A stretch of 64,000 nucleotides of DNA from an uncultured Methanomicrobiaceae archaeon (lineage in GTDB: Archaea > Halobacteriota > Methanomicrobia > Methanomicrobiales > Methanoculleaceae). Made by a program: the position numbers and the translations under genes. The stretch spans positions 1,312,001-1,376,000 of the forward strand of contig CAWGXH010000004.1 in NCBI GenBank assembly GCA_963826525.1, given 5' to 3'. This document shows positions 35,433 to 58,381 of the stretch, piece by piece (position 1 is the stretch's first letter; each line of letters starts with the position of its first letter). The notes below the pieces were generated by a model. It saw nothing but the letters and a program-made list of their open reading frames with translations. It ran no database searches and was not told the DNA's origin.

Positions 35433-35437
35433 ACCGG

Positions 35438-37505: not shown

Positions 37506-37554
37506 TCAAGGTGAATATAGAAACTATATATTGGTGTCAGTTCATGGTTTTTTC

Positions 37555-38630
37555 ATGAACAATATGCGCATATGTGCACTTCTGTGCCTGTGCCTCTGCG
37601 CCGCAGTCATGATCTGCGGCTGCACCGGCACGTCGACCGAGACCCCCGAGTCGGGAAACGCCACTGCCACTCCGACGTCTGCAGAGCAGATTCAGGTCAA
37701 GGTCTTCCTTGCCGGAAGCCTCGCCGGGCCGTTTGAGAAGATGAAAGCGGCATTTGAAGCAGAGTTCCCGAACACCGAAGTGCTCCTCGAACCCGCAGGG
37801 AGCGTCGACACCATCAAGAAGGTGACGGAGAACGGCAAGCCCGCTGATGTCGTTGCATCCGCCGACTATGCACTCATTCCGCAGATGATGGTTCCCGATC
37901 ACGCCGACTGGTATCTCACCTTCGCCAAGAACACGATGGTGATCACCTACACGAACGAGAGCAAGTACGCTGATGAGATCACCGCGGATAACTGGTATGA
38001 TGTCCTTAACCGCGACGGCGTCAAGTGGGCGTTCTCGGACCCGAACTCCGACCCCTGCGGCTACCGCACGCCGATGGTGATCCAGTCTCGCCGAGGCCTG
38101 CTACAACAACGACCAGATCTTCGAGACACTTCTCGGGGAGCACAGCGGCATCACCGCTACCGAAGAGAACGGCACCTATACCATCCACGCCACCGAACCG
38201 AACCCCGACACCACAACCCTGACCATCCGCCCGAAGAGCGTCGAGCTCGGTGCAGATGGTGCAGTCCGGCGGCCTTGACTATGCGTGGGAGTACCGGAGC
38301 GTCGCGGTGCAGAACGACCTGCAGTTCGTGGAGCTTCCGGCAGCGATCGACCTCTCCTCCGTCGAGTATGCCGACACCTATGCGACCGTCCAGATCGAGT
38401 GCAAGAAGGGCAACGGCACAACCATCTATGTGGGCGCCCCCATCGTCTACGGCGTGACCGTCCCCGCGATCGCCGAGCACCCCGAGATGGGTATCGAGTT
38501 TGTCAAGATGCTGATCGGTCCCACCGGGCAGGCGATCCTGACCGAAGACGGACAGCCCCCGATCGTCCCGGCCAGTGGCTATGGCAACGTGTCCGCGCAG
38601 CTGAACTCCCTGGTTGCCATGAAGGCCTAA
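37555..38630 (+). CDS. wtpA: WtpA-type tungstate/molybdate-binding lipoprotein (+1 frameshifts near 38086 and 38249)
   Basis: ICGC lipobox, AGSL, GSV, ASADY, SDPNSDPCGYR, RPKS, WEYRSVA, PIVYGVTVP. Confidence 0.88.
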
Positions 38631-38697
38631 ACCTCCCTTTTTATTACCGCTCAGAGAAAACGAACGTATCTGAAACGCTCAGAGGACGTTTTTACCG

Positions 38698-39582
38698 ATG
38701 AAGATGGCAACACTCCTGAAAGATCTCTTTCCGCCTGGTGAGGACATGGCCGGATGGTTTGACAGATCCGGCTGGTCTCAACGCAGGATCGACTGGTGCA
38801 TCCTCGGGTTCTGTCTCCTCGGGTCGGTCATCGTCGGCATCACGGTGCTCGCGCTTGCAAATATCTCGATCACCGAATTTGCCAACCCCGGGCATCTGTT
38901 CGAGGTGGCCACGAGTGCGGAGGTCATCGGATCGATCCTGCTCACCTTCGGGGCTGGTCTGAACGCTGTCCTGCTGCTCATCCTCTTCGGCACCCCGCTC
39001 GCCTACGTGCTCGCCCGGTCGCAGCCATCGCGCACAAAGGAGGTGGTGGAGAGCATCGTCGATATCCCGCTCATCCTGCCCCACACGGTGGCCGGTATTC
39101 TGGTGTACCTCCTCTTCATGCGAAGAGGATGGCTCGGAGCACCGCTTGCGGACGTCGGGCTCTCCTTTGAGGACGCCTACCCCGGTACTGTCGTTGCGAT
39201 GCTCTTCGTGGCATCCCCGTTCTACATCAACACGATGCGGGAAGGTTTTCTGAAAGTGCCGGTACACCTCGAGAACGTTGCCCGGACACTCGGGGCGACG
39301 AGGTTCCAGACCTTCTTCCGGGTGACGCTGCCCTTAAGTTTCCGCCACATGTACAACGGTTCGATCCTTGCCTGGGGCCGTGCAATCGGTGAGTTTGCTG
39401 CCGTTATCATGATCGCATACTACCCGTTCATCGCCTCCACGCTGATCTACTACTCGTTTACAACGGACGGTATCAGGACGAGCAGAAGCATCGCGTTCAC
39501 CGTCATCGTCGTCAGTTTTGTGGTCTTCCTGGTGCTCCGGCGCCTGACGCGCTATATGGGGAGGTACGATGATCGAGTTTGA
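38698..39582 (+). CDS. wtpB: Wtp/Mod-type ABC permease
   Basis: DIPLILPHTVAG, LENVARTLGA, WGRAIGEFAAV; start may be 38746. Confidence 0.85.
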   Translation: MKMATLLKDLFPPGEDMAGWFDRSGWSQRRIDWCILGFCLLGSVIVGITVLALANISITEFANPGHLFEVATSAEVIGSILLTFGAGLNAVLLLILFGTPLAYVLARSQPSRTKEVVESIVDIPLILPHTVAGILVYLLFMRRGWLGAPLADVGLSFEDAYPGTVVAMLFVASPFYINTMREGFLKVPVHLENVARTLGATRFQTFFRVTLPLSFRHMYNGSILAWGRAIGEFAAVIMIAYYPFIASTLIYYSFTTDGIRTSRSIAFTVIVVSFVVFLVLRRLTRYMGRYDDRV

Positions 39583-40654
39583 CCGCGTATCGCTGGCGCT
39601 CGGGCAGTTTGCTCTGAAGGAAGTCAGCCTGACCATCAACGAGGGCGACTACTACTTCATCGTCGGGCCGTCCGGTGCCGGGAAGACGGTGATGCTCGAG
39701 GCGATCGCCGGGCTCCACCGCCCGGAGCGCGGGCGCGTGCTCCTCCGCGGCGAGGATATCACTGCTACGCTGCCGGAAGAGCGGCGTATCGGGCTTGTGT
39801 ACCAGGACTACTCGCTCTTCCCGCACATGACCGTCTACGGCAATATCGCCTTCGGCCTGCGTCTCCAGGGGCGTTCGAAGGAGGAGGTCTCCCGTGACGT
39901 CGACGACCTTCTGCAGCGGTTCGGCATCGAACACCTGCAGGATCGCTACCCGCTGACGCTCTCAGGAGGGGAACAGCAGCGGGTGGCGCTCGCCCGTTCC
40001 ATCGCGGTGAAGCCCGATATCCTGCTGCTCGACGAACCGCTCTCGGCGCTCGATCCGGTCACCCGGGAGAAGTTCATGCAGGACCTTGCGGCTCTCCACC
40101 GCGAGCAGCACCTGACGATCGTCCAGGTGAGCCACGAGCGGAGCGAAGCGCGGCGGCTCGGCACCCGGATGGCGGTGATCATCGACGGCAGGCTCGTCGC
40201 CGAAGACCGTGTCAGCGCGGTGCTGAACGCCCCGGGCCGCCCGGACGTCGCCAGGTTCGTCGGCATCGAGAACGTCCTCGAGGGCAGCGTGATCGAGAAC
40301 GCCGGTGGCCTCGCCGTGATCGAGGTCTCTGGCCTCCGGTTCGAAGCGGTGACGGAGGCCCGACCCGGGACCTGCGTCTGCCTCTGCATCAGGGGCCAGG
40401 ACGTCGGCATCGCACTCTCCGGGAACCCGGCATCGAGCGCCCGGAATGTCTTTTCCGGAACCGTGACCGGCCTTGTCGGCAACGGGCCGCTCGTCGACGT
40501 CAGGGTCGACTGCGGTGTGGCAGTGACCGCGCTGCTGACGGAGAAGTCGGTCGAAGACCTTCGGCTAAATCCCGGATCAGGGGTCGTTCTGCTCATCAAG
40601 GCGAGCGCCATTCATGTAATTGCCGGAGACCCCCCCCGGAAGATCGGTGCATAA
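39569..40654 (+). CDS. wtpC: Wtp-type ABC ATPase with TOBE domain
   Basis: GPSGAGKT, LSGGEQQR, LLDEPLSALD, SSARNVF. Confidence 0.87.
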   Translation: MIEFDRVSLALGQFALKEVSLTINEGDYYFIVGPSGAGKTVMLEAIAGLHRPERGRVLLRGEDITATLPEERRIGLVYQDYSLFPHMTVYGNIAFGLRLQGRSKEEVSRDVDDLLQRFGIEHLQDRYPLTLSGGEQQRVALARSIAVKPDILLLDEPLSALDPVTREKFMQDLAALHREQHLTIVQVSHERSEARRLGTRMAVIIDGRLVAEDRVSAVLNAPGRPDVARFVGIENVLEGSVIENAGGLAVIEVSGLRFEAVTEARPGTCVCLCIRGQDVGIALSGNPASSARNVFSGTVTGLVGNGPLVDVRVDCGVAVTALLTEKSVEDLRLNPGSGVVLLIKASAIHVIAGDPPRKIGA

Positions 40655-40683: not shown

Positions 40684-41145
40684 TCAATCAGAAACAGCGT
40701 TGTGTTCGTCTTCGCCTTCGGTATCCGGGCTTTGCGGCCCGTCGAGCGAAGGTCTGCCCGTGGGAGCGTGATCCTGGTATCTGCCGCGCGTGGTCTGATC
40801 CGGTTTTATCTTCATCTTTCTGAGGAGTTCGGCGAGCATTCCGACGCCCAGTACCTCCTCGGCTGCATCGGCATACGTCGTCTCCATCATCCGGAGGAGG
40901 CAGCGCGTCCCCTCCGGGGTGGTCGATATCCCGACTCGCTCAACCCGGCGGATCAGTCCGTCCTGCTCCATCGCGGCATAGGCGGGAAGGACGTAGTAGT
41001 GCGGAACGTCGAGGTACTCGGCGAGCTTCCGCGTTGTCGGGAGGCGTATCGAGACGCCGCCCGGGGTAATACTGACGGTCATGCATCGATCTGCAAAGAG
41101 GAGGATCCGTAATGCCGCATCGAATATGTCATCCTGGTCGGACAT
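40684..41145 (-). CDS. GntR-like winged-helix protein
   Basis: RLPTTRKLAEYLDV...AYAAMEQDGLIRRVERVG resembles a GntR HTH. Confidence 0.65.
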   Translation of the reverse strand: MSDQDDIFDAALRILLFADRCMTVSITPGGVSIRLPTTRKLAEYLDVPHYYVLPAYAAMEQDGLIRRVERVGISTTPEGTRCLLRMMETTYADAAEEVLGVGMLAELLRKMKIKPDQTTRGRYQDHAPTGRPSLDGPQSPDTEGEDEHNAVSD

Positions 41146-41201
41146 GGTATCTGCTCGTGTATCGCTAAAATAGAATGGTTTTAATGGGAGCAGCGGAAGG
41201 A

Positions 41202-41429
41202 TCACTCCTTCTTCTTCTCGCCCCGCTCTTCTTCGGCCATCTCTTCGAGGTAGATCATCTCGGCACCGACGTCCTGCGCGATCTGCTCAAGTTCGGTCTT
41301 CCGAAAGTGCGTCCCCTCGATCTTCAGGTGTTTATCGTCTCCCTTCTCACCGGTTACGGCGACGACGCGGAAACGCGGCTGCTTTACGCCGGTTCCGACC
41401 TTCTGGCGCTCACGTACGTAGATCTTCAT
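41202..41429 (-). CDS. Small hypothetical protein (75 aa)
   Basis: Natural-looking composition; GAGGTGA RBS-like sequence upstream on the minus strand. Confidence 0.7.
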   Translation of the reverse strand: MKIYVRERQKVGTGVKQPRFRVVAVTGEKGDDKHLKIEGTHFRKTELEQIAQDVGAEMIYLEEMAEEERGEKKKE

Positions 41430-41630: not shown

Positions 41631-41689
41631 CTGCGAGGCTTCTTCACCGAAAAGAGCCGATGATAGAGAAAGGCTCCGGAGCAGAGACC

Positions 41690-42388
41690 ATGACAGTATA
41701 TCTCGGTATCGACGACACCGACACCCCCGAATCCCGCGGAACCGGGCTGCTTGCCCGGAAGATTGCGGCAAAACTTGCCGGGAGCTGCCGAATAGCCGGT
41801 GTGACCCGGCACCAGCTCTATGTTCATGACGATATCCCATACACGTCCCAGAACAGCTGCGCCGTCATCCACATCGAGGAGACGGAGAACGGATCCCTCC
41901 GGGAGATCCTCGGCGCTGCCCGCGAGATGATCCTCGCAGACTTCGTCGAAGGGAGCGACCCCGGTATCTGTATCGCTTCTGGGGATCAGGTAGCCGGGCA
42001 TTTGCTCTCATTCGGAATGCGGGCGAAGAGCGCCGTGGTGACGGAGGACGAGGCGCGGCACCTCGCCCGGGACACAGGCATCACGCTTGAAGGGCTCGGC
42101 GGCACGAACGGCGGCATCATCGGAGCGCTCGCCGGGGTCGGGCTCGCCGCCTCCCGGAACGACGGCAGGTTCGTCGTTCGCGGGCGCACACGGGATCTCA
42201 AAGGCTGCCAGACTGTTGCGACGCTCCTCGGCGGCGGCGTCGACAGCGTCATGACTCCGGACGGCATGCTCGTCACCGACGGTGTCGTCGAGATCCGGAA
42301 GTTCCCAAAACCCGCTCTCCGGCAGGGGCGGGCGGTGCTCTTCGTCGAGGATGCCGGCGGCGTCTACCGCGACCTCGTGGTCGGGTAG
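41690..42388 (+). CDS. Stand-alone TiaS N-terminal-like (GIDDTD) protein
   Basis: YLGIDDTD...GTG, RHQL...IPYTSQNS, EGSDPG, GIIGALAGVG; too short for full TiaS. Confidence 0.7.
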   Translation: MTVYLGIDDTDTPESRGTGLLARKIAAKLAGSCRIAGVTRHQLYVHDDIPYTSQNSCAVIHIEETENGSLREILGAAREMILADFVEGSDPGICIASGDQVAGHLLSFGMRAKSAVVTEDEARHLARDTGITLEGLGGTNGGIIGALAGVGLAASRNDGRFVVRGRTRDLKGCQTVATLLGGGVDSVMTPDGMLVTDGVVEIRKFPKPALRQGRAVLFVEDAGGVYRDLVVG

Positions 42389-42715: not shown

Positions 42716-43703
42716 TCACCCGAGCGGCTGCGGCCACCCGTCCCTGCCCTCCGCGAAGGCCTCCAGCATAAAGGCGACGAACGAGGCGGCCTCTTCCGGG
42801 TGCTCCGCCGCCGTCGGGACGGTCACGGCATAGACGATAGGCGCTCCCGTCCTGAGATTTCCGATGGAGCCGAACCGCTGAAACCCGAGCTGCACCGCCA
42901 CGTTCCGGTAGCGATCGGCGTAGTCCGCGCTCGAGAGATCGATCTCGGGCGGGAGATCGATGGAGGAGAGGCCATGGGCGTCGGCCACGCTCCGGTACTC
43001 GAAGGCGTAATCGATACCGCCCGCATCGAGGAGCGAGAGGAGGTAGATGGAACCATCCCGGATCTGCACCTTCCCGTCCGACGGGCGCAGCACCTCGGGG
43101 AGCGTGATCGTGACAGTCCCGCCCGCCCGGTTCACGACCGGCCGGGGGTCGAGGTGATCGGCGATGATTCCGTCAAAGAGTGCCCTGTTCCCGTAGTACT
43201 CTTCGGCGAGTGCCGTCACCATCAGCGCCCGGTAGCCGCATGCGTCGAGCATCGGGTTTGAAAACCCCACCCGCACGTCCGGCCGGGCAAGCACGGCATA
43301 CCAGTTCTCCGCGGTGATCTCATCGGCATGCAGGCTCTTTTCGGTGTAGGCGATCACCATCTCGTTCGTGGCGAACGATGTGTAGGTATCGGTGTAATTG
43401 CCGCCCCCGTCTTCCATCGGGCGGAACATCATCTCCGGGATCAGGGACTCGTCAGCGACAGCGACGACGTCGATAGCCCGGTGCAGATCGGTGACCTGCC
43501 TGACCGCCTGGATGCTCCCGTGCCCCTCGACCCGGACGTCGATTTCGGGGTGCAGGTTCTCGTAGGCTGCCTCGATCTCCTCCATGGGCAGGAGCAGGCT
43601 GCCTGCCGGTACGACGCGGAGCTCCCGTGGTTTCGCCCTCTCCCGTGCAGCCCGCACTGAAGATCAGCAGGACGGCGCAGAGCGCAAGTAGCATCGCCTT
43701 CAT
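42716..43703 (-). CDS. wtpA: Second, orphan WtpA-type binding lipoprotein (frameshift near 43640)
   Basis: SAGC lipobox, PAGSL, HGSIQ, AVAD, SNPMLDACGYR, FEYRSVA, PIVYAVTVP. Confidence 0.85.
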
Positions 43704-43706
43704 CCG

Positions 43707-44261
43707 TTACCGCCTGTGCACTTCGACCCGGTCGACCCACTTCACCCACGAACTCCCCTCGGTGATGACGTCGGGGCTCTCGGTGATGATGACGATCCGT
43801 AAGGGGCCGCCCTCCTCGTAGGTGAGCGGTCTGCTGTCCTGCTCGTAAGCCAGGATCACCCGGAGGGGCGGCGGCGGGATCTCGTGGAGATTCTCATCGA
43901 ACGTGAAGAACCCCTCTCCCCGCACCTGGTCGGTATCGAAGACCCAGAGATACCCGTCTTCGGCGGAGACGTAGACGAGGTCATTCTCATCCGCCCCGCC
44001 CGCCATCGCAGCGAGGTTGGTGAGGAGCACCCCCCGGTACCGGTTCGGCCCGAAGGTTATCCCGACGGTGGAGACCGCATACCCGTATCCCTCCTCCGCG
44101 GGCAGTGCCCGCAGTTCCGCAAGCGAAAGCACTTCTTCGGTCTCGCCGGCAACCGTGAGGTTCCAGGCTATCTGCTCCTCGACCCCGTCTCCGCCCTGCC
44201 CGGTGCACCCGGAGATGCAGACGGCGGCAGCGAGCAGGAGAGCGTATACAACACGCAGCAC
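43707..44261 (-). CDS. Lipoprotein with a molybdopterin-oxidoreductase (SUOX/MsrP)-like domain
   Basis: ISGC lipobox; WNLTVAG, LSLAELRALP, YRGVLL, AEDGY, ILAYEQD, GGPLRI, WVKWVDRVEV. Confidence 0.75.
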   Translation of the reverse strand: MLRVVYALLLAAAVCISGCTGQGGDGVEEQIAWNLTVAGETEEVLSLAELRALPAEEGYGYAVSTVGITFGPNRYRGVLLTNLAAMAGGADENDLVYVSAEDGYLWVFDTDQVRGEGFFTFDENLHEIPPPPLRVILAYEQDSRPLTYEEGGPLRIVIITESPDVITEGSSWVKWVDRVEVHRR

Positions 44262-44267
44262 CTGTCG

Positions 44268-45098
44268 TCACCTCCTGCCGCAGAAGAAACTTGCCGCGCC
44301 GATCGCGAGAGGTACCGGCAGCAGCGAGAGGGGTGTTCCGACAGCCCCGGCAGTGGTCGTATCGGCAGCAGGTCCGGTCTTCTGGAGCGACTTGACAAGT
44401 GCGCTCCGCTCACCCTGGTAGCCTCCCTCGTAGACCCTGACCTCGTCCACCCACTTCACGGATAGGCCGCTCGTGGAGGGGAGCAGGTCGTAGAAATGCT
44501 GGGCGGCCTCGGGCAGCGTCTCGTACATATCCTGGTTGCCGTAGACGTGCAGGCCTTCCGCATTTGTCGAGTTGTCGGCGAAGAACGTAAGCCGCATTCC
44601 GTTGTAGAACTCCGGGACATAGCCGGTGCCTTGGCGCTCGCCCGCTCCCGTCTCATCGCCGTTGTACCAGGTGATCCCGATCGGCCCCTGCCGGGGATCG
44701 GGCTGGTAGACGTTCTCGTAGGCAAACTCGACGTGGTAACCGTCGGCGGCCTTCACCATCACCTCGTCGCCGGGCTCCGCACCGCCGACCAATTCGGCGA
44801 GATCACGGATATCGGTGCCCTTCACGGCACCCCGGTCCTTGAAGTTCGTCGTCTCGTTCGGATCCCACTTCTCTCCCTCGAAGACCGGGCCCTGGTGGTA
44901 GTAATGAGTCACGCCGTCACCGAGCACCGGGAGGTTCTCTTCCATCCAGCGGTAGTCCACCGTCGTTTCGTTCAGGATCGTCGCCTGGTCGGCCGCGATC
45001 TTCACCACATGGAGCTCGGTGGTGGGCGCTGCCTCTGCCGCACCCGCCGCTGCCAACAGAAGCAGGGCGACGGCGAGTATTCGTGTCAGTGATGTCAT
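44268..45098 (-). CDS. Secreted, C-terminally anchored protein with a 'WMEENLPV' domain
   Basis: Signal peptide; YRWMEENLPV, YYHQGPVF, KAADGY, GMRL, SVKWVDEV; hydrophobic tail + RR. Confidence 0.8.
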   Translation of the reverse strand: MTSLTRILAVALLLLAAAGAAEAAPTTELHVVKIAADQATILNETTVDYRWMEENLPVLGDGVTHYYHQGPVFEGEKWDPNETTNFKDRGAVKGTDIRDLAELVGGAEPGDEVMVKAADGYHVEFAYENVYQPDPRQGPIGITWYNGDETGAGERQGTGYVPEFYNGMRLTFFADNSTNAEGLHVYGNQDMYETLPEAAQHFYDLLPSTSGLSVKWVDEVRVYEGGYQGERSALVKSLQKTGPAADTTTAGAVGTPLSLLPVPLAIGAASFFCGRR

Positions 45099-45136
45099 AT
45101 CGTGTCAATCTCCGGAATCTGTACGTTTGGGTCTGG

Positions 45137-47459
45137 TTACGTATCTTCAAATAGCACGGTGCAGTCGACCGTCGCCCCCGGCGCCACGACGACATTCTCG
45201 ATAGTTCGGCTTTTCGTTTCGCCGACGACCTTCACCGCGTAGGCGCCGATCCGCATCCCCGGGAAGGTATGCGGCGTCGTCTCCCCGGTGTAGCGTCCAT
45301 AGAGGTAGATCTTCGCTCCCGGCGGGGTGCTGTTCACGCTGAGCGATCCGCAGGGATATTCGGTCAGGGTCGACCGGATCGTCCCTCCTGCTCCTGCCGG
45401 AGCACCCGGCGGGATCGTGATCTCCCCGTTCGCCGGGAGGTATCCGGGGAGCGAGAGGGTGATCGTGTGCCTCCCCGACGAGAGATCGCGAACGACGGCG
45501 GGCGTCCGAAGATCGGTTGGATACCCGTCCACGAAGACCAGCGCTCCCGGCGGGTCGGAGACGACCGTGACGGCGTACGTCTCCCCCGCCCCGGGCACTG
45601 CGGTGAACTGCTCCCCGTCCGCGAGGGTGTCGGGCAGCGCGATCGAGTGGTAGGTATCATTCTCGCGGAGGGTGATCCAGGCTCCGTTGCCGTCTATATC
45701 CACCGTCGCCGGCAGGGTATACGCCGGGTACGCCCCGTTGACGGTGAACGTTGCTCCGGCAAGGTCGGGGTTCCCGAATGTGATCGTCCGGACGCGCCGG
45801 TTCTGCACACCATCTACACGGACTGGTGTGATGGTGTCGGGATAGACCCACACCCGGCGTGTCCCGTAGTGGATGCCGGTATCCGCAGAATCGATGCTGC
45901 TCGCGGCTTCGTAATCGAGGGCGATCGTGTGGAGTCCTTCGCGGAGCCCGTACACCACGGAGGGGGTGTTCCGGTCGATCCGCGTATTGTCGATGGTGAT
46001 CGCCGCGTCCTGCGGGAAGGAGTCGATGAAGAGTCCGCCGGAGCGGTTCGAGCGAACCGCCTCAGGCGTCACGGTTGGTGCTGCTGTCGGGGTTTCCGGC
46101 AGTTCGCTCCCCAGATCAGGCTCCGGCAGGCCTTCAGGCGTCCCGAGCGCAGGTTCGCTCTCATCAGAGCCTCCGGTGATGAGGGAGGCGATGAAGTGGA
46201 AGAGTGCGAAGAGCGGGTCGAACAGTCCGGGCGTGGCCGGGGTCGCCGTCGCGGTCGGCACAGGCCGGGTGGTCGCCGGGGTCGCAGGCGACGTCGTGGT
46301 AGCCGGGACGGTCACGGTGAGAGATACTGCCGGCAGTGGTTCCGATCCATTGAGCGGCGCGAGCACCAGATCGACGGCGACCGTCTCATCCGCCACGGCG
46401 GTGACCGTCGTGGTGGCGTTCTCGTAGCCCTCCCTGAAAAGGACGATGGTATGCTCCCCGACCGCGACTTCCTCGAGGATTGTATCGGTCACGTTCCCGG
46501 TCTCGTTTCCGTCGAGGACGATCGCCGCTCCCGTGGGCAGGGACGAGACGGCGATGCTCCCCTGCAGCGGGAGAAGGTCGAAGGTGATCTGCCCGGTTTC
46601 CAGTGCTTTTACGGTGATCCATCGCTCCTGACTTGCGGCGTAGCCGTCCTTCTCCACCCTGACCGAGTGCGACCCTATCTCAAGATCGCGGATCGTGCAT
46701 GGCGTGAGCTGACCGGTGTTCTCGTCGTCGAGGTAGACGGTTCCCCCCGCAGGGCTTGATTCGACCTCGAGCGCTCCGGTCGCCTCTTCCTCGCTGAAGA
46801 TGGCGACCTCGCTGACGTACTGTGCGGATAGGCCGGTCGTCGTCGGCACACCGGGCTGGAAGAAATGCCAGTACTCGGGATCGAAGCACTCCTGCATATC
46901 GGTGACACCGAAGGTGTGGTTTCCCCAGGGGTTGACGGAGGTGTCCGCAAAGAAGACGAGCCGCATCCCCTCCCGGTACTCGGGAACGTATCCCTCGTCG
47001 GCACGGTACCAGGTAACGACCATCGGCCCCTGCCGCGGTTCGGGCTCGTAGACGTTCCGGTAGGGAAAGATCTTTGAAAACCCGTCGGGGGCCTTCACCC
47101 TGACGGTTTCGCCCTCCGCCATCCCCCCGACAAGGTCGCAGAGGTCGGCGAGGTCGGTGCCCTTCACCGCACCCATATCCTTCTCATGTGACGTTGGTAT
47201 CTTCTCCGCCGGATTCCAGGGATCTGACCGGGTCGAAGACCGGCCCCTGGTGGTAGTAGTGCGTCTCCCCGTCCCCGAGGACGGGCAGGTTCTCCTCCAT
47301 CCACCGGTAGTCGACGGTCGTCTCCTGAAGGACGGTTGCTCCGTCGGCAGCATAGCGCACGATATGCACCTCCGTCGTCGCGGCACCGACGCTCCCCGGG
47401 ATGAGGATGCAGAGGAGCAGCAGAATGGCCATAAGCCGGAAAAGAGCATGTATCGGCAT
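45137..47459 (-). CDS. Secreted 'WMEENLPV' domain + multiple PEGA domain protein (frameshifts near 47195-47230)
   Basis: N-terminus in ORF 47184..47468, remainder in 45137..; repeated VxSxPxGAxIxxDG...G.H.I PEGA motifs. Confidence 0.78.
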
Positions 47460-47508
47460 AGGGATCACCGTTGTGCAGATGAGGAACTCTGAAAAAGAGG
47501 CATGGGTG

Positions 47509-48926
47509 TTATCTCCTGCGGAGGAGGAAGAGCAGCCCGAGGGCGAGCACCGGTACCCAGGTCGGGACGGGGAGCGACAGCGGGAACCACGATCCGCCGG
47601 CCGCCGTCGTCGTCTCCGTTGCGGCTGCGGCGATCACCGCTGTCTGCTGCGCTGAGGCGGTCGGGGCGGCTGTCGGTTCACTGGCGGCGGTTGTGGTCAC
47701 CGGCGTGGCGAAGGTCGCTTCGGGGTTGTAGTCGAAGCTCGATTTGGCCGGTGAACCTCCGCTGCTGCTGCTCCCCGAACCTCCCGAGCTCGGCGGCGTC
47801 GTCGGTGCGGGAGTAACCGGGCTTACCGTGGACGTTCCGATGAGGGCGAAGATCGAGAGCCCGCTTGGAGATGCGGCCTCGAAGACGTAGTTGCCGGCAT
47901 CATCGGTGCCGATGAGCGTCGTTGCGAGAGCAGTCGTGGTGCCGTCATCGGCTCTACGCATGATCACGACCTTCTCCACTCCGCCGACCGCCGTCACCCA
48001 GGCCGGGCTGACGGCCATCCGGATCGTCGCGGCCGTGATGACACCGCCGTCGCCAGCGTTCGCAATATTGCTCTTCTGGACGTTCATGACGTATGCGATA
48101 TCCGTGATACCGCTTCCCGACTGCTGGGCGGTGAGGAGGAATGCGCTCTGTGCCGCAGGGTCGGGCTCCCGTGCGATCGTCGTCGTGAGCCGTGCATCCG
48201 ACGGCGGCATCTCGCTCATGTCGAGCGCGATCTGCGCTGCTGCCGTCCCGACGGTAGCATCGACGTTCGCCGTCACCGGGCTGCTCCGCGCGGTCACGCC
48301 GGTGACGGTTCCGGTGACGGTCGTCTCGCCGACCGCAGGTTCATCCCCGGTCTCGATGACGATCTCCTCCCAGCCGCTGCCAACGTCCTGCATCACGATT
48401 CTGTTGCCGTCGGTCGTGACGTTGGCCGTGGTCTCCTGCCGGTTGATCGTCACCTGCTGTGCCCCGCCTGCCGTAGTTGTCTGCACGCCGCCGGGGGCGA
48501 AGGAGCAGTCGCCCGATCCGATCGGGGTCTCCGCCTCTCCGCCCCGCTCCCGGTGGTAAACGTAAGATCGATCGCACTGGCATCGCTGGGTGCGTAGAGG
48601 CATCTCCTGGTCTGCCTGGTCTGCTGCCGACCCAGAACGTGACCGTTGGTGTATCGGATGCGACGAGATCGAACTCCGTAGCCCGCACGACGAGCCGGCT
48701 TGCCCAGATTCCCTCCGCCCCGTAGGTGCCGGGCTCGGTGAGGGTGAAACGCCCGCGTTCGTTCCAGTTTATTTTGGCGATGATGACGGTGCCTGCAGGT
48801 GCGTCGGCACCGTCGATGACGGCCGTTCCCCAGGTACTGTGCGGGAAGAACCGGCATCGATTCGGCGGCTGCCGCTCCCACCAGCAGGAGCAAAAGAAAT
48901 AGTGTGATGATTGGTCTGCTATCCAT
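47509..48926 (-). CDS. Cell-surface protein with a PGF-pre-PGF-like domain and C-terminal anchor (several frameshifts at 48580-48830)
   Basis: Signal peptide; MAVSPAWV...IMRRADDG...L.T...YVFEAASPSGLSIFAL; T/S linker; hydrophobic tail + RRR. Confidence 0.7.
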
Positions 48927-48938
48927 GGTTATCTCTGC

Positions 48939-51900
48939 CTACAAGGCGATTGCTGCAAGTTCACCGCTTCCCCGAAGGTACACCCAGTAGCCTTTGCCCG
49001 GAGAGCAGATCTCCCGTGTCGGCATGCGAACCAGATCCTCCGCGAATGATGGCGGTTTCGTATTCCTGGTTTTCTGCATCGAATCCGATCACCTGTGTCC
49101 ATGCGTCGCCGAGGGAGAGGAGGGTGTCGCGTGCCTGTGCAGGTTCGGTGTCGGTGAATCCGACCGCGTTCCAGCCCTTATAGAGATCTGCTGTCGGCGG
49201 CGTCTGCAGGGGCTCGTCGCTGAAATAGAGCGACACGTTGCAGGCGGCTGCATGAGTAGATCCAGTACGCCGCGAGGGGTTTCAGCGTATCGGTCGCCTG
49301 GACTTCCTCCCAATACTTAATCGCCGCATTGTAGCGCCAGATCGCGTGGTTTGCGGTATTGACATCGCTGAAGATCGCGGCGGTGTTGCTGCCGGCTGCA
49401 AGCCTCTTGGGGATGGAGACGAAGTTCAAGCCCTGATGCAGGGCAGAGCTCCGCATCGGCGGGAATGGGGAGATCGATCAGGGCGATCTCGTCGATGCTT
49501 CCGATCTTCTGTTTGCCGCTCGTCAGTGCGGAACCGACGAGTTTCAGCGGCCATGACGGTTTGTCGCCGTCCGCCGGGAGCGGGATGCCGTTTATCTCGT
49601 TGGCGACGATGATGTTGTTGTTCAGTTTGATGAAGCTGCTCTCGAAGGTGGCGGAGAAGTCGTCCTCGGTGCCCTTTGTATTGTCGGGGCCGTAGTCGAT
49701 GACGGTGACGTTGTAGCCGATATCGGCGAGCGTTCCGTTGAAGGGATTGGTACCGTAGTCGTGCTTGTTGGCATCGTCGACCCAGCCGACGAGGAGCCAG
49801 AGCGGCATTCCCGACCAGACGTTGCCGTCATCGTCGGTGTAGGTTGCTCCGTGGCCGCCGAGGGCGCAGGCCTTCCCGGCTTCGAAGTACGAGCGAGTGA
49901 TGGTGTCGGTGATCGCGCCGGTCAGGATGAGGTTCCAGTCCTCGCGTGCGCCGGGGTGAATCTCGACCGTGGCGATATTCTTGTTCGCGACTCCGGCAGC
50001 GGATGGATACTGAATGCCGCCGCTCCAGTAGTAGTGCCAGTAGTCCTCGGCGAGGCATGCCCGCATATCGTCGGCTCCGAAGATGCCGTCGGGGGCATTG
50101 AAGAAGAGGCGGATTCCGTCGCGGTAGTCGGGGACATACTCGTCGTCCGCCCACCATGCCAGAATAGCCTCGCCCTGCCGGTCAAGTGGTGTATAGAGGT
50201 TGGTGTAGTTGATCTTTGCTTCGTAGCCGTCGGAGGCGACGAGGACGATCTCGCTGCCCTCGGGCGCTCCGCCGACGAGGTCGCAGAGATCCTTGATGCA
50301 CGTACCCCGGACGACGTTATCGACTTTGCCGGGGTTTATATCCTCAGCGGGATTCCAGAGGTCGTCCGGATCGAAGGTCGGACCCTGGTAGCGGAGGCGG
50401 ACACCGTCGGCGCCGCCGATGACGGGGAGGTTCTCCTCCATCCACTGGTAGGTCTTCGTCGTCTCGTTAAGAACCGTCACGCCGTCGGCGGCGTAGCGGA
50501 TGATCTGTACGGAGGGAAGGTCGGTCGGCTCCTGGAACTCTGTCAGGGCGATCTTCTCGATGTTGCCGACGCTCTTGCTGCCAACCGCTCCCTCGCCGAC
50601 GAGACGGAGCGGGAACGCTCCGCCGGTGATGGCAGAGCCGTTGACCTTGTTGGCGACGATGTAGTTATTCTTATTCGCTACGATCTCCTGGCTGGTAAAC
50701 TCCTTGCTGTAGGGAGAGACGCCGCCCGAGGAGACGATGACCGTGTAACCGGCCGCTGCGAGGTTGTCGTTGAATGCACCCGAACCGTGCATGACGTCGT
50801 CGTCGACCCAGCCTGCGAGATACCAGAGCGGAACGCCCGTCCAGGTGGAGACGCCATCGTTGTAGGTCGCGCTGTGGCAGGCGGCACCTTCTTCGAACTC
50901 GGCCTCGGAGATGACGGCGGTGATCGCAGCCCCTTCGAGGGTGAGCGTCCATTCTCCTTCCTCAGGTGCACCGGGCAGATCGACGAGGGTGATCGAGGCG
51001 ATGTTGCCGACTCTCTGTTTGCCGCTCGTCAACGCGGAGCCCTGCAGTTTTAGGGGGTAGCCGTCGTCGTTCCCGAGCGGGCTGGCGTTCAGCTTGTTCG
51101 CAACGATGTAGGCGTTGCTCTCTGCGATATCGGCGCTGTCGAGGGTGACGGTGTAGCCGTCCTCTGCGGTGACGTTGATGGTGTATCCTTCGGCCGCAAG
51201 TGCATCGTCGAACGTCCAGTGGTTCGAGGTCTCGATATCGTCGACGACGCCGACGAGGTACCAGAGCGGCATTCCCGTCCAGACGCGGTCACTGCTGTCG
51301 GTATAGGGTGCAGCGTGGCCGCAGGCAATGCCTTCCTCGAACTCTTCCTGCGTCAGGGTGCGGGAGAACTTCCCGTTCAGGGTAATCGTCCAGCCGTCGG
51401 AAGGCTCCGGAAGCCCGATGAGTTCGATCTCGACGACGTTCCCGACCTTCTGGCCTGCGTTCACATGAGCGCCGATCATCTGGAGCGGCCAGCAGGGTTT
51501 CTCGCTGTCCCCGATGACTGCCGGGAGGGGTTCGCCGTTCAGGGTGTTCGCGACGATGATCGCATCGTCACGGGCGACGCTGGCGCTCTCGAAGTTAACG
51601 CTGTAGCCATCGCCGGCGATGACTTTAATCGAGTAGCCCTCTTCGGCGAGGTCGTCGTTGAATGCACCGGCACCGTGCTTTTTGTCGTCGTCGACCCAGC
51701 CTGCGAAATACCAGAGCGGGACACCCGACCAGACGTTTCCGTCATCGTCGGTGTAGGTTGCGCCGTGGCCGCAGTCGACGGCATCCTCGAAGTACGCCTG
51801 GTCGATGGTATCGGTCAGGGCACCTTTCAGGGAGAGCGTCCAGTCTCTCGGGCTCGGCGATATCGACCGTGATGCCGACCATCGCGGTGGCGGTCTCAGG

Positions 51901-52805
51901 GGTAACGCCGTCTTCGCCATAGTAGAAGACAACTTCATCGCCGTCGACGAGTTCGTAGACGTCGACACCCTCGGAGGCAGACTGCAAACCCGTCGAGCGG
52001 ATCGCCGTTCACCATGTAATACCAGGAGGCACCCCCTTTGACGTAGCAGTATTCGCTGACGTTATCGAGGAGGAGAAAACCATTGGAGACCTTCTTCTTG
52101 TCCCCGACGGCGTAGGTGAAGCCTTCTGCTTCGGCGACGGCATCAAGTGCCCCGAGCGGCGTGAGCGTATCGACGGTGTACCCTGTCCCCGATGTCGCGG
52201 TGCAGGTGAAGGTGCCGTCTTCCAGCGTCACCGGACCGTCATAGAGGACGTCCATCGCCTCGTTGATCGAAACGGTGATATTGACGAGCGCGGTTGCGTT
52301 CTCCGGAGTAATGCCGTCCTCTCCGTAGTAGAAGACGACCTCGTCGCCGTCGACGAGTTCGTAGACGTCGACACCCTCGGAGGCAGCTGCAAACCCGTCG
52401 AGCGGATCGCTGTTCACCATGTAATACCAGGAGGCACCCCCTTTGACGTAGCAGGTACTCGCTGACATTATCGAGGAGGAGAAAACCGTTCGAGAGCTTC
52501 TTCTTATCCCCGACGACGTAGGTGAATCCTTCGGCATCGGCGACGGCATCGAGCGCTCCGAGCGGCGTGAGCCGGTCAACGGTGTACTCCGTTCCCGAGG
52601 ATGCGGTGCAGGTGAAGGTGCTGTCGGTCAGCGTCACCGTATCGTCAAAGAGCAGATCGGCCGTAGCAATCATGGCGGCGGTGTTCTCCGGGGCATACGG
52701 TTCGACCGGGAGCCCGGTATCGGCTCCCGCCGCAGGCACGATGAGGATCATCAGTGCGAGCAGCACAGTAAAGCAGATCACTTTGTTTTCCTTAAAATGT
52801 ATCAT
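48939..52805 (-). CDS. Large secreted multidomain protein: 2x DUF4430-like, 4x Cys/His SUOX-fold-like, 1x 'WMEENLPV', C-terminal GWN repeats (about 6 frameshifts)
   Basis: Homologous domains continue across ORFs 52239.., 51935.., 51742.., 49317.., 49178.. and 48961..; inferred end ...YWVYLRGSGELAAIAL-TAG at 48939. Confidence 0.72.
51860..52660 (-). repeat. ~405 nt direct repeat (two copies) encoding the duplicated N-terminal domain
   Basis: 51941-52080 is nearly identical to 52347-52487. Confidence 0.9.
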
Positions 52806-52895
52806 AAACTCACCTTTTCGCAAACAGGCTGCCAAGACGTCTCCCAGCATGTGCAAGGCATTAAAAAGGTGGAAGGGGGCGAGTATATAGTTTGC

Positions 52896-52915: not shown

Positions 52916-53032
52916 TAACTTAATGTGGTTAACTCGTCCGGTGGCGGGCAAAGGGGCTAAAAAAAGGGCGAAAACGTAAAATCCATTTCAATTCTGCCGT
53001 ATCTCCGGGTGCCGACTTTCGGAGCGCCCCCG

Positions 53033-54172
53033 TCAGTCCTCCGGGGATCGCCTCATCCCCGGCCGCCATCGCTGCAGGGCGTATGCGAGCACCATGCCGG
53101 CGATGAACGCGACCGTGAGCCCGACCGCCAGGGTGAGGATGGCGATCACTGCGGTGACGATATACGAGTCGGTCTTGATGCTATGCTTTCCGAGCTCGAT
53201 TCCGACGAAGACGAGCAGCCCGCCGAAGATGCCGAGCGGGATCAGGGTCAGCACCTCGGGAGGTGCGAAGAGCAGGGCGAAGGCGAGGATGAAGAGGCCT
53301 GCGGCGATGTTCGCTCCACCGGTGCGGGCGCCGAACCGGTACTGGGCTGCCATCCCTCCGGCGCCGTGGCACATCGGGAACCCGCCGAGGGGTGTCGAGA
53401 CCAGGTTCATCAGGCCGATCGTCCGGGAGAGGCGATCGGGTTTGACCTCCTTGCCGAAGAGATCGATCGTCAGGAGCGAGGTCGCGAGGATTGCGTTCGT
53501 CAGCGTCAGTGGGATCTGCGGGAGAACCAGTGTCCACGCTCCTGCGACAAAGTCCGCTGCGGTAGGAATGATCAGGTACGGGAGGGGGATAAAGCGGAGC
53601 GGTGGGAACCCTGCAGTGAGGATCCCGGCACCAAGGCCGATAGCGATCACCACCAGGGCAGAGATGTCCGGCAGTCGGGTCCGGTTTGCGAGGACGAAGA
53701 AGGCGAGGATGATCGCGATCGAGAGCACGGCGAACGAAAGGTCGGTGAGAATGTATCCGAGCGACGTCCGGAGCAGCAGGAGTGCAAGCCCGGCCTGAAC
53801 GCCGCGAATGACGCTTTGCGGGATCCACTTCCGGATACGCTCCATGCCGCCGAATACCCCGAGCAGGAAGAAGATCACGCCGAGGATGATCCCGGCCGCT
53901 GCGATCTCCCCGCCGCTCAGCCCTTCGGCGATGACGATAGCCCCTATCGCTTTCATCGGTTCGATAGGGATCGGGAGCCGGTAGTAGAGGCCGGCGATGA
54001 CGTACCAGGCAGCCATGAAGAGGAAGATGTGGCTGATATTGACGTCCGAGACAAGGGCGACACCGAGGATGATCGGAAAGATCGTGCCGATATCCCCGAG
54101 TCCCCCTGCGATCTCCTCAAGCGTGAACCGGATGCTTGGGGGATCAGTTGTTGGGCGAGCGTGCGGTGCCAT
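53033..54172 (-). CDS. MOT1-family molybdate transporter
   Basis: EIAGGLGDIGT, PIPIEPMKAI, PQIPLTLTNA, PMCHGAGGMAAQYRFGART. Confidence 0.88.
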   Translation of the reverse strand: MAPHARPTTDPPSIRFTLEEIAGGLGDIGTIFPIILGVALVSDVNISHIFLFMAAWYVIAGLYYRLPIPIEPMKAIGAIVIAEGLSGGEIAAAGIILGVIFFLLGVFGGMERIRKWIPQSVIRGVQAGLALLLLRTSLGYILTDLSFAVLSIAIILAFFVLANRTRLPDISALVVIAIGLGAGILTAGFPPLRFIPLPYLIIPTAADFVAGAWTLVLPQIPLTLTNAILATSLLTIDLFGKEVKPDRLSRTIGLMNLVSTPLGGFPMCHGAGGMAAQYRFGARTGGANIAAGLFILAFALLFAPPEVLTLIPLGIFGGLLVFVGIELGKHSIKTDSYIVTAVIAILTLAVGLTVAFIAGMVLAYALQRWRPGMRRSPED

Positions 54173-54393
54173 TCATCTCCTCACGGGTAGTCTGTAGGCG
54201 GTAATGATTAATGATGTTTGTTGATTTCGATACCGGGACGAAAGCAGAGACCCGTGTCGTAGATGGGAACATCATCAGTCGTCTGGGGAAGTGGGGTCTC
54301 TTTTGTCCCCTCGGTCGGGTGAGCCTGTTCTCTGAGCCCTGCCGGAGCGTTCGCGCCTTTCCGTGCCCGAAATTTGCGCTCTACCGATGGTGT

Positions 54394-54413: not shown

Positions 54414-54477
54414 TTTTGCGCCCAAACGATGTGCTCCATTATAAACAGTTATCTTCTGCGGTCGGTCAATCCTTTTT

Positions 54478-55294
54478 ATGCACAAAAAACGGGTTGTTTT
54501 CATGCTTCTGCTCATCACCTGTGCATCCGTCTTCATCTGCGGGTGCACCGGTCCTGCAGCAACTACTGAGTCGACTGAAACCACGGGTGAGTCGGCATCG
54601 CTCCTGGTCTACTGTGGTGCCGGCATGCGTGAGCCTATGGAGGAGATCGCCACCGTCTTTACAGAGAAGTATGGTGCTACCGTAAACTACAACTTCGGCG
54701 GATCGAATGCACTGCTCTCGCAGATGGAGCTGGTTAAGCAGGGCGACGTCTACATGCCGGGTGCGACCTCGTACTTCGATACTGCCCGCGAGAAAGGCTT
54801 TGTCCAGAAGGAAGAGACTCGTTGTCTACCACGTCCCGGCGATCGTCGTGCCGAAGGGCAACCCGGCGAACATCACCTGTCTTGCCGACCTTGCAAAGCC
54901 GGGGGTCAGGGTGGAGCTCGGTGACGCGGAGGCCTGTGCGATCGGCAAACTCTGCGACAGCCTGCTCACCAAGAGCGGCATCCAGGATGAAGTCCTTGCC
55001 AACACCGTTGCACGGACGGCCACCGTGAACGAGCTCATCGTTCATGCCTCGCTCAGACAGGCAGACGCCGCAATCGTCTGGGAGGATCTCTACGAAAGCG
55101 AGAAGCTTGACCTCATCGAGATCCCGAAGGAGAACAACATCGTCAAGATCGTCCCCATCGGTACCCTGATCTTCTCCGAACATCAGGAGCTCGCCGATCA
55201 GTTCGTCACCTTCGTCTCGTCGGATGACGGCAAGGCGATCTTTACCGCGCACGGATTCACGACCTACCCGGACGCCTACTATGGGACAGTCTGA
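54478..55294 (+). CDS. modA: Molybdate ABC binding lipoprotein (frameshift near 54815)
   Basis: ICGC lipobox, YCGAGM, FGGS..LLSQ, GDVYMPG, KGNPANI, AIG, TVNEL, DAAIVW. Confidence 0.85.
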
Positions 55295-55312
55295 ACGGGC
55301 TTAAAAACGAGG

Positions 55313-55861
55313 ATGGTAATTACCGTGAACCGAAACGATCAGGACGTGAAGAACATGGAGATCCGATACCGACCGATAGGCATCATTCATTCCGAGTTCA
55401 CCGAGCAGGATGAGACGCCGATTCAGGGCATCTTCAACGAATCCGTGGGCCAGGTTGAGGTCTTTCCCGAGTTTGCGGAGGGCCTCCGGGATATCGAGTC
55501 CTTCTCGCATATAATCCTCCTCTACCACTTCGACCGGGCGGACGGGTGCACCCTCCTTCAGAAACCGTTCCTGGACGGCGAAAAGGAGCGCGGTATCTTT
55601 GCTATCAGGCACTTCAAGCGCCCGAACCCGATCGGTATCTCAATCGTCCGTCTGCTTGGGGTGCAGGGGAACGTGCTCGAGATCAAAGGTGTGGACGTCC
55701 TCGACGGGACACCGCTGCTCGACATCAAGCCCTATGTCTACCGGTTCGATCACCGTGATGAGGTCCGGAGCGGATGGGTTGATAACCAGCATATCGACGA
55801 CATCGCAGAATGGAACAGCACGCCGAGAGCGCTGCGCGACCGTGAGAGGACAAACCGGTGA
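55313..55861 (+). CDS. TrmO/TsaA (YaeB)-like SAM-binding beta-barrel protein
   Basis: YRPIGIIHSEF, TPIQG, FSHIILLYHF, GIFAIRHFKRPNPIG, DGTPLLDIKPY; start may be 55355. Confidence 0.88.
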   Translation: MVITVNRNDQDVKNMEIRYRPIGIIHSEFTEQDETPIQGIFNESVGQVEVFPEFAEGLRDIESFSHIILLYHFDRADGCTLLQKPFLDGEKERGIFAIRHFKRPNPIGISIVRLLGVQGNVLEIKGVDVLDGTPLLDIKPYVYRFDHRDEVRSGWVDNQHIDDIAEWNSTPRALRDRERTNR

Positions 55862-56652
55862 ATGCGTATCTCCGCTCGCCGCTGAAGACCGTCACTATCG
55901 GCGCAGGCGTCGGGCTCGCTCTCTTCATTGTGGTGCTCCTGCTCCTGGTGATGAGTCATCCGACGCCGGATGGCCTCATCTCCTCGCTCCTCTCTCCCGA
56001 GATCTGGTTTGCCATCTACCTGAGCCTGGGGACGTCGTTTGTCTCGACGTTTCTCTGTATTCTGGTTGGTATTCCAGCAGCGTACGCGCTTGCACGCTAC
56101 GACTTCTTCGGGAAGCACGCCGTAAACACGATCCTCGACATGCCGCTCGCACTCCCGCCGCTGGTGGCGGGTGTCGGGCTGCTGCTCTTCTTCGGTGCGA
56201 CCCCGATTGGAGAGGCGCTGTCAATGGCGGGACTGGTCTTCGTCTTTACGCCTCTCGGTATCATCGTCGCGCAGTTCTTCGTCAACGTCCCCTTCATGCT
56301 ACGCATCATGCGGTCCACCTTCGAGGGGATCAGCCCGCGGTATGAGTACGTGGCAAAAACGCTCGGGTGCACCGATACCCAGGCGCTCTGGCGCGTCACT
56401 CTGCCGATGGCTATGAACGGGTTTTTTGCGGGTTCGGTGATCACCTGGGCGAAGGGCATCGGCGAGTTCGGTGCCGCACTGATGATCGCCGGGGCAACCC
56501 GGATGGTGACGGAGACACTGCCGATCTCGCTCTTCCTGAATATGTCGTGCGGGAAACTGGACCTCGCCATCTCGGCGGCGACCATCCTGATCGCCATCAG
56601 CGTCGTTTCACTCTACGTCTTCGAACGCTACGGCGGGTGGGCGCGCCTGTAG
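55858..56652 (+). CDS. modB: Molybdate ABC permease
   Basis: DMPLALPPLVAGVGLL, YEYVAKTLG, WAKGIGEFGA. Confidence 0.88.
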   Translation: MNAYLRSPLKTVTIGAGVGLALFIVVLLLLVMSHPTPDGLISSLLSPEIWFAIYLSLGTSFVSTFLCILVGIPAAYALARYDFFGKHAVNTILDMPLALPPLVAGVGLLLFFGATPIGEALSMAGLVFVFTPLGIIVAQFFVNVPFMLRIMRSTFEGISPRYEYVAKTLGCTDTQALWRVTLPMAMNGFFAGSVITWAKGIGEFGAALMIAGATRMVTETLPISLFLNMSCGKLDLAISAATILIAISVVSLYVFERYGGWARL

Positions 56653-56662
56653 GAGTGAACGG

Positions 56663-57721: not shown

Positions 57722-57759
57722 GTGCCCCGGCATCCCTCGCATTCTCTTTTCGGGGCGAT

Positions 57760-58250
57760 AGCGGGGAGCGTCTCGGATGTCTGAAACGGCTGCGCATCCG
57801 CGTCCGGAACTCTTCCGTTTCTATCGATCCCGCCCGATGTCCCTCAAGGGTCATGATCCGATCCACCCGGGCGATCAGGATGTCGAGCGAACGTGCAGCA
57901 GAGAGGAGCGCCGTCTCGCTGAGCGCCTCACGGCGGGTCGCAAGTGGTCGTCGCATCCCCGCTCCGGAGGCACCCGGGCACGAGAAGGTTCATCACCGAC
58001 CGGTCGTCGTCGAAGATCAGCAGGGGTGCCTGCTTCCGGACGGCTGTCTGGAACTCGTGCGCCATCACTATCGATCCGTTCCTCTGGCCAGATCGCTCGC
58101 GGCGTGCCGCCGATACCGGGGGATACGGACACGTGACTTGATCTCTTCGAACAGCACCGCGACCGCGTCGTCGGCACCGGTAGGATTTCGGCACAGTTTT
58201 TCGAGGATTCTCCCGTCGATCAGCACCGGCAGGCTGGACACGCCGGAGGT
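57760..58250 (-). pseudogene. Degenerate fragment of a COG3044-like 'ATPase of the ABC class'
   Basis: Across frames: GIGGTPRAI / GSIVMAHEFQTAVRKQAPLLIFDDDRSVMNLLV / SLDILIARVDRIM, resembling the family's SGSTSQA...LLIDEDTSATN segment. Confidence 0.4.
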
Positions 58251-58331
58251 CGACGTCCCCCTCTCTGTTCACGTCGATATGTTTACTTCGATAATTAATC
58301 AGTATTAGTAACTTTATTGAGTAAACCTGCG

Positions 58332-58351
58332 ATTAAATCTCAAGATTTATC
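58332..58351. promoter_or_regulatory. Inverted repeat TAAATCT-CA-AGATTTA upstream of tupA copy 3
   Basis: Perfect 7-bp arms at 58334-58349; also reads ATTAA-N10-TTATC. Confidence 0.45.
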
Positions 58352-58381
58352 TTAGAATTTCACATATGTTAACCGATCGCT

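Follow-up and report, generated by a model that had tools for sequence, protein, structure and literature searches.

Hydrogenotrophic methanogens depend on tungsten (W) or molybdenum (Mo) enzymes (formylmethanofuran and formate dehydrogenases), and both metals are scarce and sulfide-bound in the habitats of these archaea. In this work, we analyzed a 64,000-nucleotide (nt) stretch of the genome of an uncultured Methanomicrobiaceae archaeon (assembly GCA_963826525.1, contig CAWGXH010000004.1, positions 1,312,001 to 1,376,000), which is referred to below as the window. Its open reading frames (ORFs) include an operon of six co-directional minus-strand genes that span positions 42716-52805. Four of these genes encode domains related to the sulfite oxidase (SUOX) fold, and the last one encodes a relative of WtpA, the binding protein of a tungstate/molybdate importer. 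The operon points to an undescribed outer capture stage for W or Mo uptake. In operon order, and compared with the intact operon of a genome from the same genus (G001), the six genes are as follows:

48939..52805, minus strand: large multidomain surface protein (1305 amino acids, aa, in the intact G001 orthologue; six frame breaks)
47509..48926, minus strand: PGF-like protein with a signal peptide and a linker rich in Thr and Pro; its hydrophobic C-terminal anchor ends in RRR (two frame breaks)
45137..47459, minus strand: surface protein with PEGA repeats and, in its N-terminal part, a SUOX-like B domain (one frame break near 47190-47230)
44268..45098, minus strand: anchored protein in which one B-type SUOX-like domain is flanked by a signal peptide and a C-terminal membrane anchor (intact)
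43707..44261, minus strand: lipoprotein with a single A-type SUOX-like domain (184 aa in G001; intact)
42716..43703, minus strand: WtpA2, a diverged WtpA-type substrate-binding lipoprotein (one frame break, near 43626, falls between the lipobox signal peptide and the mature part)

In G001, the intergenic gaps of this operon are 3-60 nt, and its products have 1305, 461, approximately 780, 277, 184, and 328 aa in operon order. Each of the six intact orthologues has a Sec-type signal peptide or a lipobox at its start, and a twin-arginine motif is found in none of the six N-termini. These observations confirm two claims of an earlier interpretation of this DNA made without database searches (hereafter the sequence-only reading), namely, that the six genes are closely spaced and that their products are all exported without a twin-arginine signal. 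The same reading had labeled the second product as PGF-pre-PGF-like. The hydrophobic C-terminal stretch with its RRR tail is present, but the scores against TIGR04213 (PGF_pre_PGF; 22.4 and 21.7 bits) are below the cut-off of 28 and the label is weak. This protein has no SUOX domain and matched no Pfam family.

The SUOX-like domains amount to eight copies in four proteins, as the sequence-only reading had roughly counted, and belong to three types (A, A′, and B). The large protein has four A′ domains and one B domain, the PEGA protein and the anchored protein have one B domain each, and the lipoprotein has the only A domain. Within the large protein, a Sec signal peptide and two to three DUF4430-like repeats (27 bits in the G001 orthologue; cut-off 23.8) are followed by three A′ domains (51405-51845, 50970-51395, and 50532-50954), the B domain (49950-50513), a fourth A′ domain (49467-49940), and a C-terminal domain of approximately 90 aa. 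The SUOX family PF00174 was detected in this protein (58.7 bits in the window and 56.8 bits in G001) and in the lipoprotein (46 bits). The PEGA repeats of the third protein are clear (183 bits over four stretches in the window and 192.9 bits over five stretches in G001), and the anchored B-domain protein matched no Pfam family. In profile comparisons with hhalign, the B family (anchored protein) matched the A family (lipoprotein) at a probability of 96.4% and A′ matched A at 94%; the direct match between B and A′ was weak (38%). Clusters of B-domain proteins in the Protein Atlas are annotated as hypothetical, with PF00174 assigned to 35% of the members in one of them. The A′ family comprises 697 representatives at E ≤ 0.001, and comparison of its profile with the sequences in PDB gave only weak matches (E = 0.013).

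Structure models establish, at the level of prediction, that the lipoprotein and the B domains adopt the SUOX fold. The lipoprotein model (predicted local distance difference test score, pLDDT, of 89.9) was compared with known structures by VIA-align, and the top ten chains all have this fold, with Z-scores of 15.5 (SoxC), 15.4 (SorA), and 15.4 (PruR, 7kp2) down to 10.6; the next chain scored 5.2. The match to PruR covers 134 of 138 residues, and Foldseek also grouped the lipoprotein model with SorA, SoxC, and PruR. For the B domain of the anchored protein, the AlphaFold2 model has a lower pLDDT of 71.4, and Foldseek returned no match at E ≤ 0.001. In an exhaustive VIA-align search, PruR (7kp2) was the first hit of this B-domain model at Z = 10.0, the other nine of the top ten were also SUOX-fold chains (lowest Z, 6.3), and the best unrelated chain reached 4.0. 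The assignment to the SUOX/MsrP fold in the sequence-only reading thus stands, given the PF00174 matches (46 and 58.7 bits) and the exclusive presence of SUOX-fold chains in the top ten of both searches (Z-scores of 10.6-15.5 for the lipoprotein and 6.3-10.0 for B).

Among 30 aligned sequences of the lipoprotein family, the sole Cys is the lipobox Cys19, and the invariant positions include Ser64-Thr65 at a hairpin tip, D102, Y104, R155, W172, K174, and W175. No Cys is invariant in the B domain (27 sequences), but many polar and aromatic positions are, among them a T-H-Y-Y-H-Q-G-P stretch. A C-x-H motif is found in the A′ domain, and its Cys is present in 62 of the 75 local copies and in 224 of the 345 copies from 150 representatives. 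This Cys lies opposite the Mo-ligating Cys of Escherichia coli MsrP when the two are aligned colinearly over 133 columns, but the hhalign probability is only 6.7%. With the E. coli protein as reference, the probabilities were just 3.4% and 6.7%; its homologues among the best 120 rows were all at least 90% identical save one at 73%, which gave no useful profile. At the N-termini of the A′ family, an RR-like motif was seen in four of the 150 representatives. Outside this operon, A′ domains are found beside Shr-like heme-binding HID, InlB B-repeat, PKD, CARDB, CBM96, and NosD modules (P0366, P0370, P0308, and P0309), including in bacterial-type surface proteins. A search for longer or fused relatives of the lipoprotein returned one match (457 aa), which is weak evidence.

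The same genome also has a pair of canonical paralogues that match PF00174 at 125.6 and 123.1 bits, both with the Cys motif. These MsrP-like copies are nearly identical; one (L165:1303-1989, plus strand) is full-length with an RR-bearing N-terminus, and the other is at L166:1441-2019 (minus strand). Each copy adjoins a similar membrane-protein gene, which suggests either a recent duplication or an assembly duplicate. The lipoprotein family aligns with the full-length canonical paralogue at an hhalign probability of 96.3%, and the strand that carries the Cys falls in a gap. Taken from these sequence comparisons, the SUOX-like proteins of the operon are diverged, Sec-exported, and probably cofactor-free relatives of a true enzyme in the same cell.

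Gene order couples the surface proteins to Wtp genes. The lipoprotein gene is directly followed by the WtpA2 gene at all 16 loci of the order and at all 12 loci with strong orthologues in other families of the phylum; at eight of these 12, a same-strand wtpB gene is located no more than 3 kb downstream. Among 73 named Methanomicrobiales loci with sufficient flanking sequence (Methanoculleus, Methanoregula, Methanolinea, Methanocalculus, Methanogenium, Methanofollis, Methanospirillum, and Methanocorpusculaceae), 69 have this adjacency, and three of the four exceptions have a tandem duplication of the anchored-protein and lipoprotein genes before wtpA2. The B-domain gene is directly upstream of the lipoprotein gene at 68 of 68 named loci, and a wtpA-wtpB-wtpC run follows the lipoprotein gene at 23 of 60. 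The WtpA2 type is present in exactly the same 17 of 31 related genomes as the lipoprotein; the other 14 have neither. Even within one genus, the module was found in seven of 12 genomes. Furthermore, a 673-aa ORF in one genome from another family of the phylum (L069:8581-10602, minus strand) fuses a WtpA-like SBP_bac_11 domain (residues 56-342) with two Oxidored_molyb stretches and lies upstream of wtpA2-wtpB-wtpC. Judged from adjacency, shared occurrence, and this gene fusion, the linkage of the surface SUOX-like genes to wtp genes, which the sequence-only reading had expected, is very strong.

The sequence-only reading had also described the wtpA gene as an orphan without permease or ATPase. 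This is true within the operon only, and a wtpA1-wtpB-wtpC cluster is located 2 kb away at 37531-40654. In four genomes (G007, G008, G010, and G012), wtpB-wtpC have no adjacent wtpA, and the surface operon encodes their only WtpA, namely, WtpA2. Orthologues of these WtpB(C) proteins, at 76-83% identity, serve a canonical WtpA1 in other genomes. Gene context thus indicates that WtpA2 would work with the WtpB permease and the WtpC ATPase.

WtpA2 itself is a clear but unusual member of its family. It scored 333 and 326 bits against TIGR03730, above the cut-off of 242.75, and matched MA_0280 at E = 3e-67. Its scores against NF003196 (299 and 301 bits) are below the cut-off of 355, whereas the WtpA1 of G001 clears both cut-offs. 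Against a profile of the WtpA2 type, its own members scored 507-579 bits and canonical WtpA proteins 238-319 bits. The solved WtpA proteins are described as coordinating W octahedrally through the carboxylates of Asp160 and Glu218. WtpA2 keeps the Asp of the S-N-P-x-x-D motif and has no acid at either position of R-S-M-E-x-E-L, the motif in which the solved proteins have acids at these positions, one of them presumably the second carboxylate ligand (Glu). In all 16 aligned sequences, these positions have Ser and Tyr/Phe instead, and the Ser is invariant in 26 of 26. Additional features of WtpA2 are an invariant His in E-G-H-G-S and two insertions. The earlier identification of the last gene as a WtpA therefore holds at the family level, and these sequence features assign it to a diverged WtpA subfamily that the sequence-only reading had overlooked.

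Based on these results, we propose that the operon may encode an extracellular accessory stage for capture, serving a Wtp-type tungstate/molybdate ATP-binding cassette (ABC) importer, with a probability of approximately 0.5. The SUOX-fold domains (eight in this operon), which we take to be cofactor-free because they are Sec-exported, would be displayed on the cell envelope together with DUF4430 and PEGA modules and would bind W or Mo species outside the membrane. The binding site may lie where SUOX enzymes hold Mo. The bound species would then be passed directly to the membrane-anchored WtpA2, which would dock on WtpBC; the wtpBC genes belong to the same operon in many relatives and lie 2 kb from it here. 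An oxyanion or a thio-form seems to be favored over a pterin-bound metal as the bound species, because WtpBC orthologues with 76-83% identity serve the canonical WtpA1 elsewhere.

A more elaborate version of this proposal is tentative. Methanomicrobiales and some neighboring lineages may have an extramembrane W/Mo relay, in which three kinds of cofactor-less SUOX pockets would hold the metal and hand it stepwise to a WtpA2 with a remodeled and non-octahedral site. The pocket chemistries would be Ser/Thr in A, Cys/His in A′, and His/Tyr in B, and the metal may be held as an oxyanion, a thiometalate, or a pterin-dithiolene complex.

Several points weigh against the capture proposal. In an archaeon whose S-layer is porous, it is not obvious why a small anion would require an outer receptor. 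Judged from its domain neighbors, the A′ domain is a surface module of general use, and this operon alone connects it to W/Mo; its Cys is only partly conserved and is missing from approximately one-third of the copies. The related genomes behind the neighborhood counts are not independent of each other. Moreover, the SUOX motifs that have been kept (D-G-Y and W-V-K-W-V) are those used for pterin by PruR and by the enzymes, and the ligand may be a pterin rather than an oxyanion because the retained motifs have this role.

PruR-like pterin binding is the strongest rival explanation, although it appears rather doubtful. The domains would bind free pterin or molybdopterin/tungstopterin instead of an oxyanion, and would either sense it and modulate WtpA2/WtpBC or salvage metallopterin. 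PruR of Agrobacterium tumefaciens (Atu3496; PDB 7kos, 7kom, 7kp2, and 7rkb) is described as a secreted and possibly lipidated protein with a Cys-less SUOX fold, in which a Tyr and a Trp sandwich the pterin, together with an Asn (Asp in some groups) (PMC11194511; PMC13259868). It is among the best structural matches of both the lipoprotein and the B domain, and D102, Y104, W172, and W175, all invariant in the lipoprotein family, are putative equivalents of its pterin-binding residues. However, the Pro-Trp motif that PruR has at the Cys position was not seen in the lipoprotein, which has Ser-Thr at the hairpin tip. The partner gene is also different: at the loci counted above (16/16, 12/12, and 69/73), the gene downstream of the lipoprotein gene encodes WtpA2, an oxyanion binder by type, and not a DcpA-type diguanylate cyclase/phosphodiesterase. 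Because WtpA2 is the sole binding protein for WtpBC in four genomes, the system must still import an oxyanion.

The PruR comparison also defines what is shared and what is new in the archaeal proteins. As described, PruR is a small secreted SUOX fold without the Mo-ligating Cys, a binder rather than an enzyme, and is often annotated as 'molybdopterin-dependent oxidoreductase'; the lipoprotein of the operon, with 184 aa, a lipobox, a Cys-less mature part, and a Z-score of 15.4 to 7kp2, is much alike. Unlike the reported PruR, which is proteobacterial, has a single domain, binds monapterin or neopterin, and has a DcpA cyclase/phosphodiesterase as partner, the operon proteins are archaeal, belong to three types, are multiplied in giant surface proteins, and are associated with a WtpA-type partner and WtpBC.

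The surface proteins may alternatively be structural components of the envelope or S-layer that are co-transcribed with wtpA2 for envelope assembly and have no role in metal capture, which we consider unlikely. Several features of the proteins are typical of envelopes (PEGA repeats, PGF-like anchors, and Thr/Pro-rich linkers), and A′ domains elsewhere are found beside generic surface modules. However, the many invariant polar and aromatic residues in A and B suggest a specific pocket. The perfect co-occurrence with WtpA2 among the 31 relatives and the fusion of a binding protein to SUOX-like domains in one genome also argue for a more specific function than envelope assembly.

The frame breaks raise a different question, namely, whether the operon is a decaying pseudogene cluster in this strain. 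In the window assembly, four of the six genes are broken, and only the lipoprotein and anchored B-domain genes are intact. Compared with G001, there are approximately 10 uncompensated single-base (+1) insertions, with one in wtpA2, one in the PEGA gene, two in the PGF-like gene, and six in the large gene. The breaks are dense, with approximately 10 in the 10 kb of the operon and approximately nine in the remaining 54 kb of the window (a rough count from overlapping ORFs), as would be expected if they were real. However, all clear breaks are +1 insertions, and no nonsense substitution was found across approximately 5100 codons aligned with G001, where the single stop seen results from a frameshift. 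The six breaks of the large gene fall in a repeat-rich sequence, and tupC, wtpA1, and modA of the window are split by frame breaks as well. The host genome is only 87.6% complete in 16 contigs, and the orthologues of the operon genes are intact in the relatives examined. We read the breaks as probable assembly errors because these single-base insertions are absent from G001, and real decay of the operon is accordingly improbable. Further frame breaks are suggested outside the W/Mo island described below, at 24064-27036, by same-strand overlapping ORFs (24064-24885 with 24690-25898; 25925-26389, 26322-26681, and 26614-27036).

The last explanation, that these are extracellular enzymes dependent on the molybdenum cofactor (Moco) or its tungsten counterpart (Wco) with SUOX catalysis, draws on the public name of the lipoprotein family ('molybdopterin-dependent oxidoreductase') and on the alignment of the A′ Cys with that of MsrP, and it is highly improbable given the low probability of that alignment, the lack of Tat (twin-arginine translocation) signals in the operon and their rarity in the A′ family, the lack of a conserved Cys in A and B and in approximately one-third of A′ copies, the tandem repeats, and the lack of a redox partner gene in the operon.

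Two groups of known proteins share components with the capture system that we propose. WtpABC/class III ModA (Pyrococcus furiosus WtpA; PDB 3cg1, 2onk, 3cfx, and 3cfz) are clear homologues of WtpA2, which sits with wtpB and wtpC in many genomes; in contrast to them, WtpA2 has no acid at the second ligand position and has the E-G-H-G-S His and two insertions. None of the described Wtp systems has surface accessory proteins. The SUOX-family Moco enzymes (sulfite oxidase, SorA/SorT, SoxC, and MsrP/YedY) have the fold and C-terminal motifs in common with the operon proteins. These enzymes have a Mo-ligating Cys and use Tat when exported, whereas the operon proteins have Sec signals, no conserved Cys in A and B, and tandem arrays.

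The heme relay of Gram-positive bacteria (Isd/NEAT) consists of several wall-anchored proteins that repeat one binding fold and whose genes adjoin those for a lipoprotein binding protein and an ABC permease. The resemblance to the operon is a functional analogy: the fold, the ligand, and the domain of life differ, and transfer between the archaeal proteins is a proposal.

A full-text literature search of main texts did not reveal any account of surface proteins with the SUOX fold that are linked to Wtp. This agrees with the sequence-only reading, which knew of no such system but missed PruR, a described Cys-less and secreted pterin binder with the SUOX fold. If the capture proposal is true, accessory proteins would be added to a Wtp system that was supposed to be complete, the Moco-binding fold would have been adopted for simple binding on at least two occasions, and an outer capture stage would change the view of trace-metal limitation of methanogenesis in digesters and sediments. 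If the relay also exists, it would be the first extracytoplasmic capture system for W/Mo and the second non-enzymatic use of the SUOX fold. The public names 'molybdopterin-dependent oxidoreductase' and 'YedYZ catalytic subunit' for such proteins appear to be a systematic annotation error, which is corrected here.

The operon lies inside a 27-kb W/Mo island, and this setting among other W/Mo transport and storage genes also favors the capture proposal. The island contains these other genes:

53033..54172, minus strand: MOT1-family molybdate transporter (PF16983 MFS_MOT1, 194 bits), just upstream of the operon
41660-42388, plus strand: protein weakly like the TiaS TCKD domain and methanogenesis marker 11, between wtpC and wtpA2
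40684-41205, minus strand: small winged-helix-like protein, a candidate regulator, between wtpC and wtpA2
37531..40654, plus strand: canonical wtpA1 (frameshifted), wtpB, and wtpC, convergent with the operon and 2 kb away
36560-37396, plus strand: full-length homologue of the Mo-storage protein (Azotobacter MosB, E = 2.8e-58; MosA, E = 1.6e-49), between tupC and wtpA1
32369-36545, plus strand: two tandem TupA-like genes (205 and 212 bits, below the NF041772 cut-off of 400), a truncated tupB, and tupC split in two ORFs
54416-59302, plus strand: third ABC system with modA (split), a TrmO_N-domain gene (trmO), modB, modC with TOBE domains, and a further PBP_like_2 gene

No match to Rfam at gathering thresholds was found at 30000-56000. 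A comparison of the upstream region of the operon with those of tup, wtp, and mod for a shared operator motif gave only a TATA-like 10-mer at 52884-52893, which is common with the wtpA1 upstream region. A search of sequencing runs listed one DNA run, which contains 0.05 of the sequence words, and no RNA run. The plus-strand ORF at 53009-54190 was rejected as a real gene and is the antisense of the MOT1-like gene, homologues of which adjoin wtpC in three relatives. Only one subunit gene of the Mo-storage-protein homologue was seen here, and its location next to wtp genes is shared by several relatives. The winged-helix-like gene and the TiaS/marker-11-like gene also recur beside wtp genes in other genomes. 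Elsewhere in the window, an FdhD/NarQ-family gene is followed by a DUF1890 gene at 7701-8929 on the plus strand.

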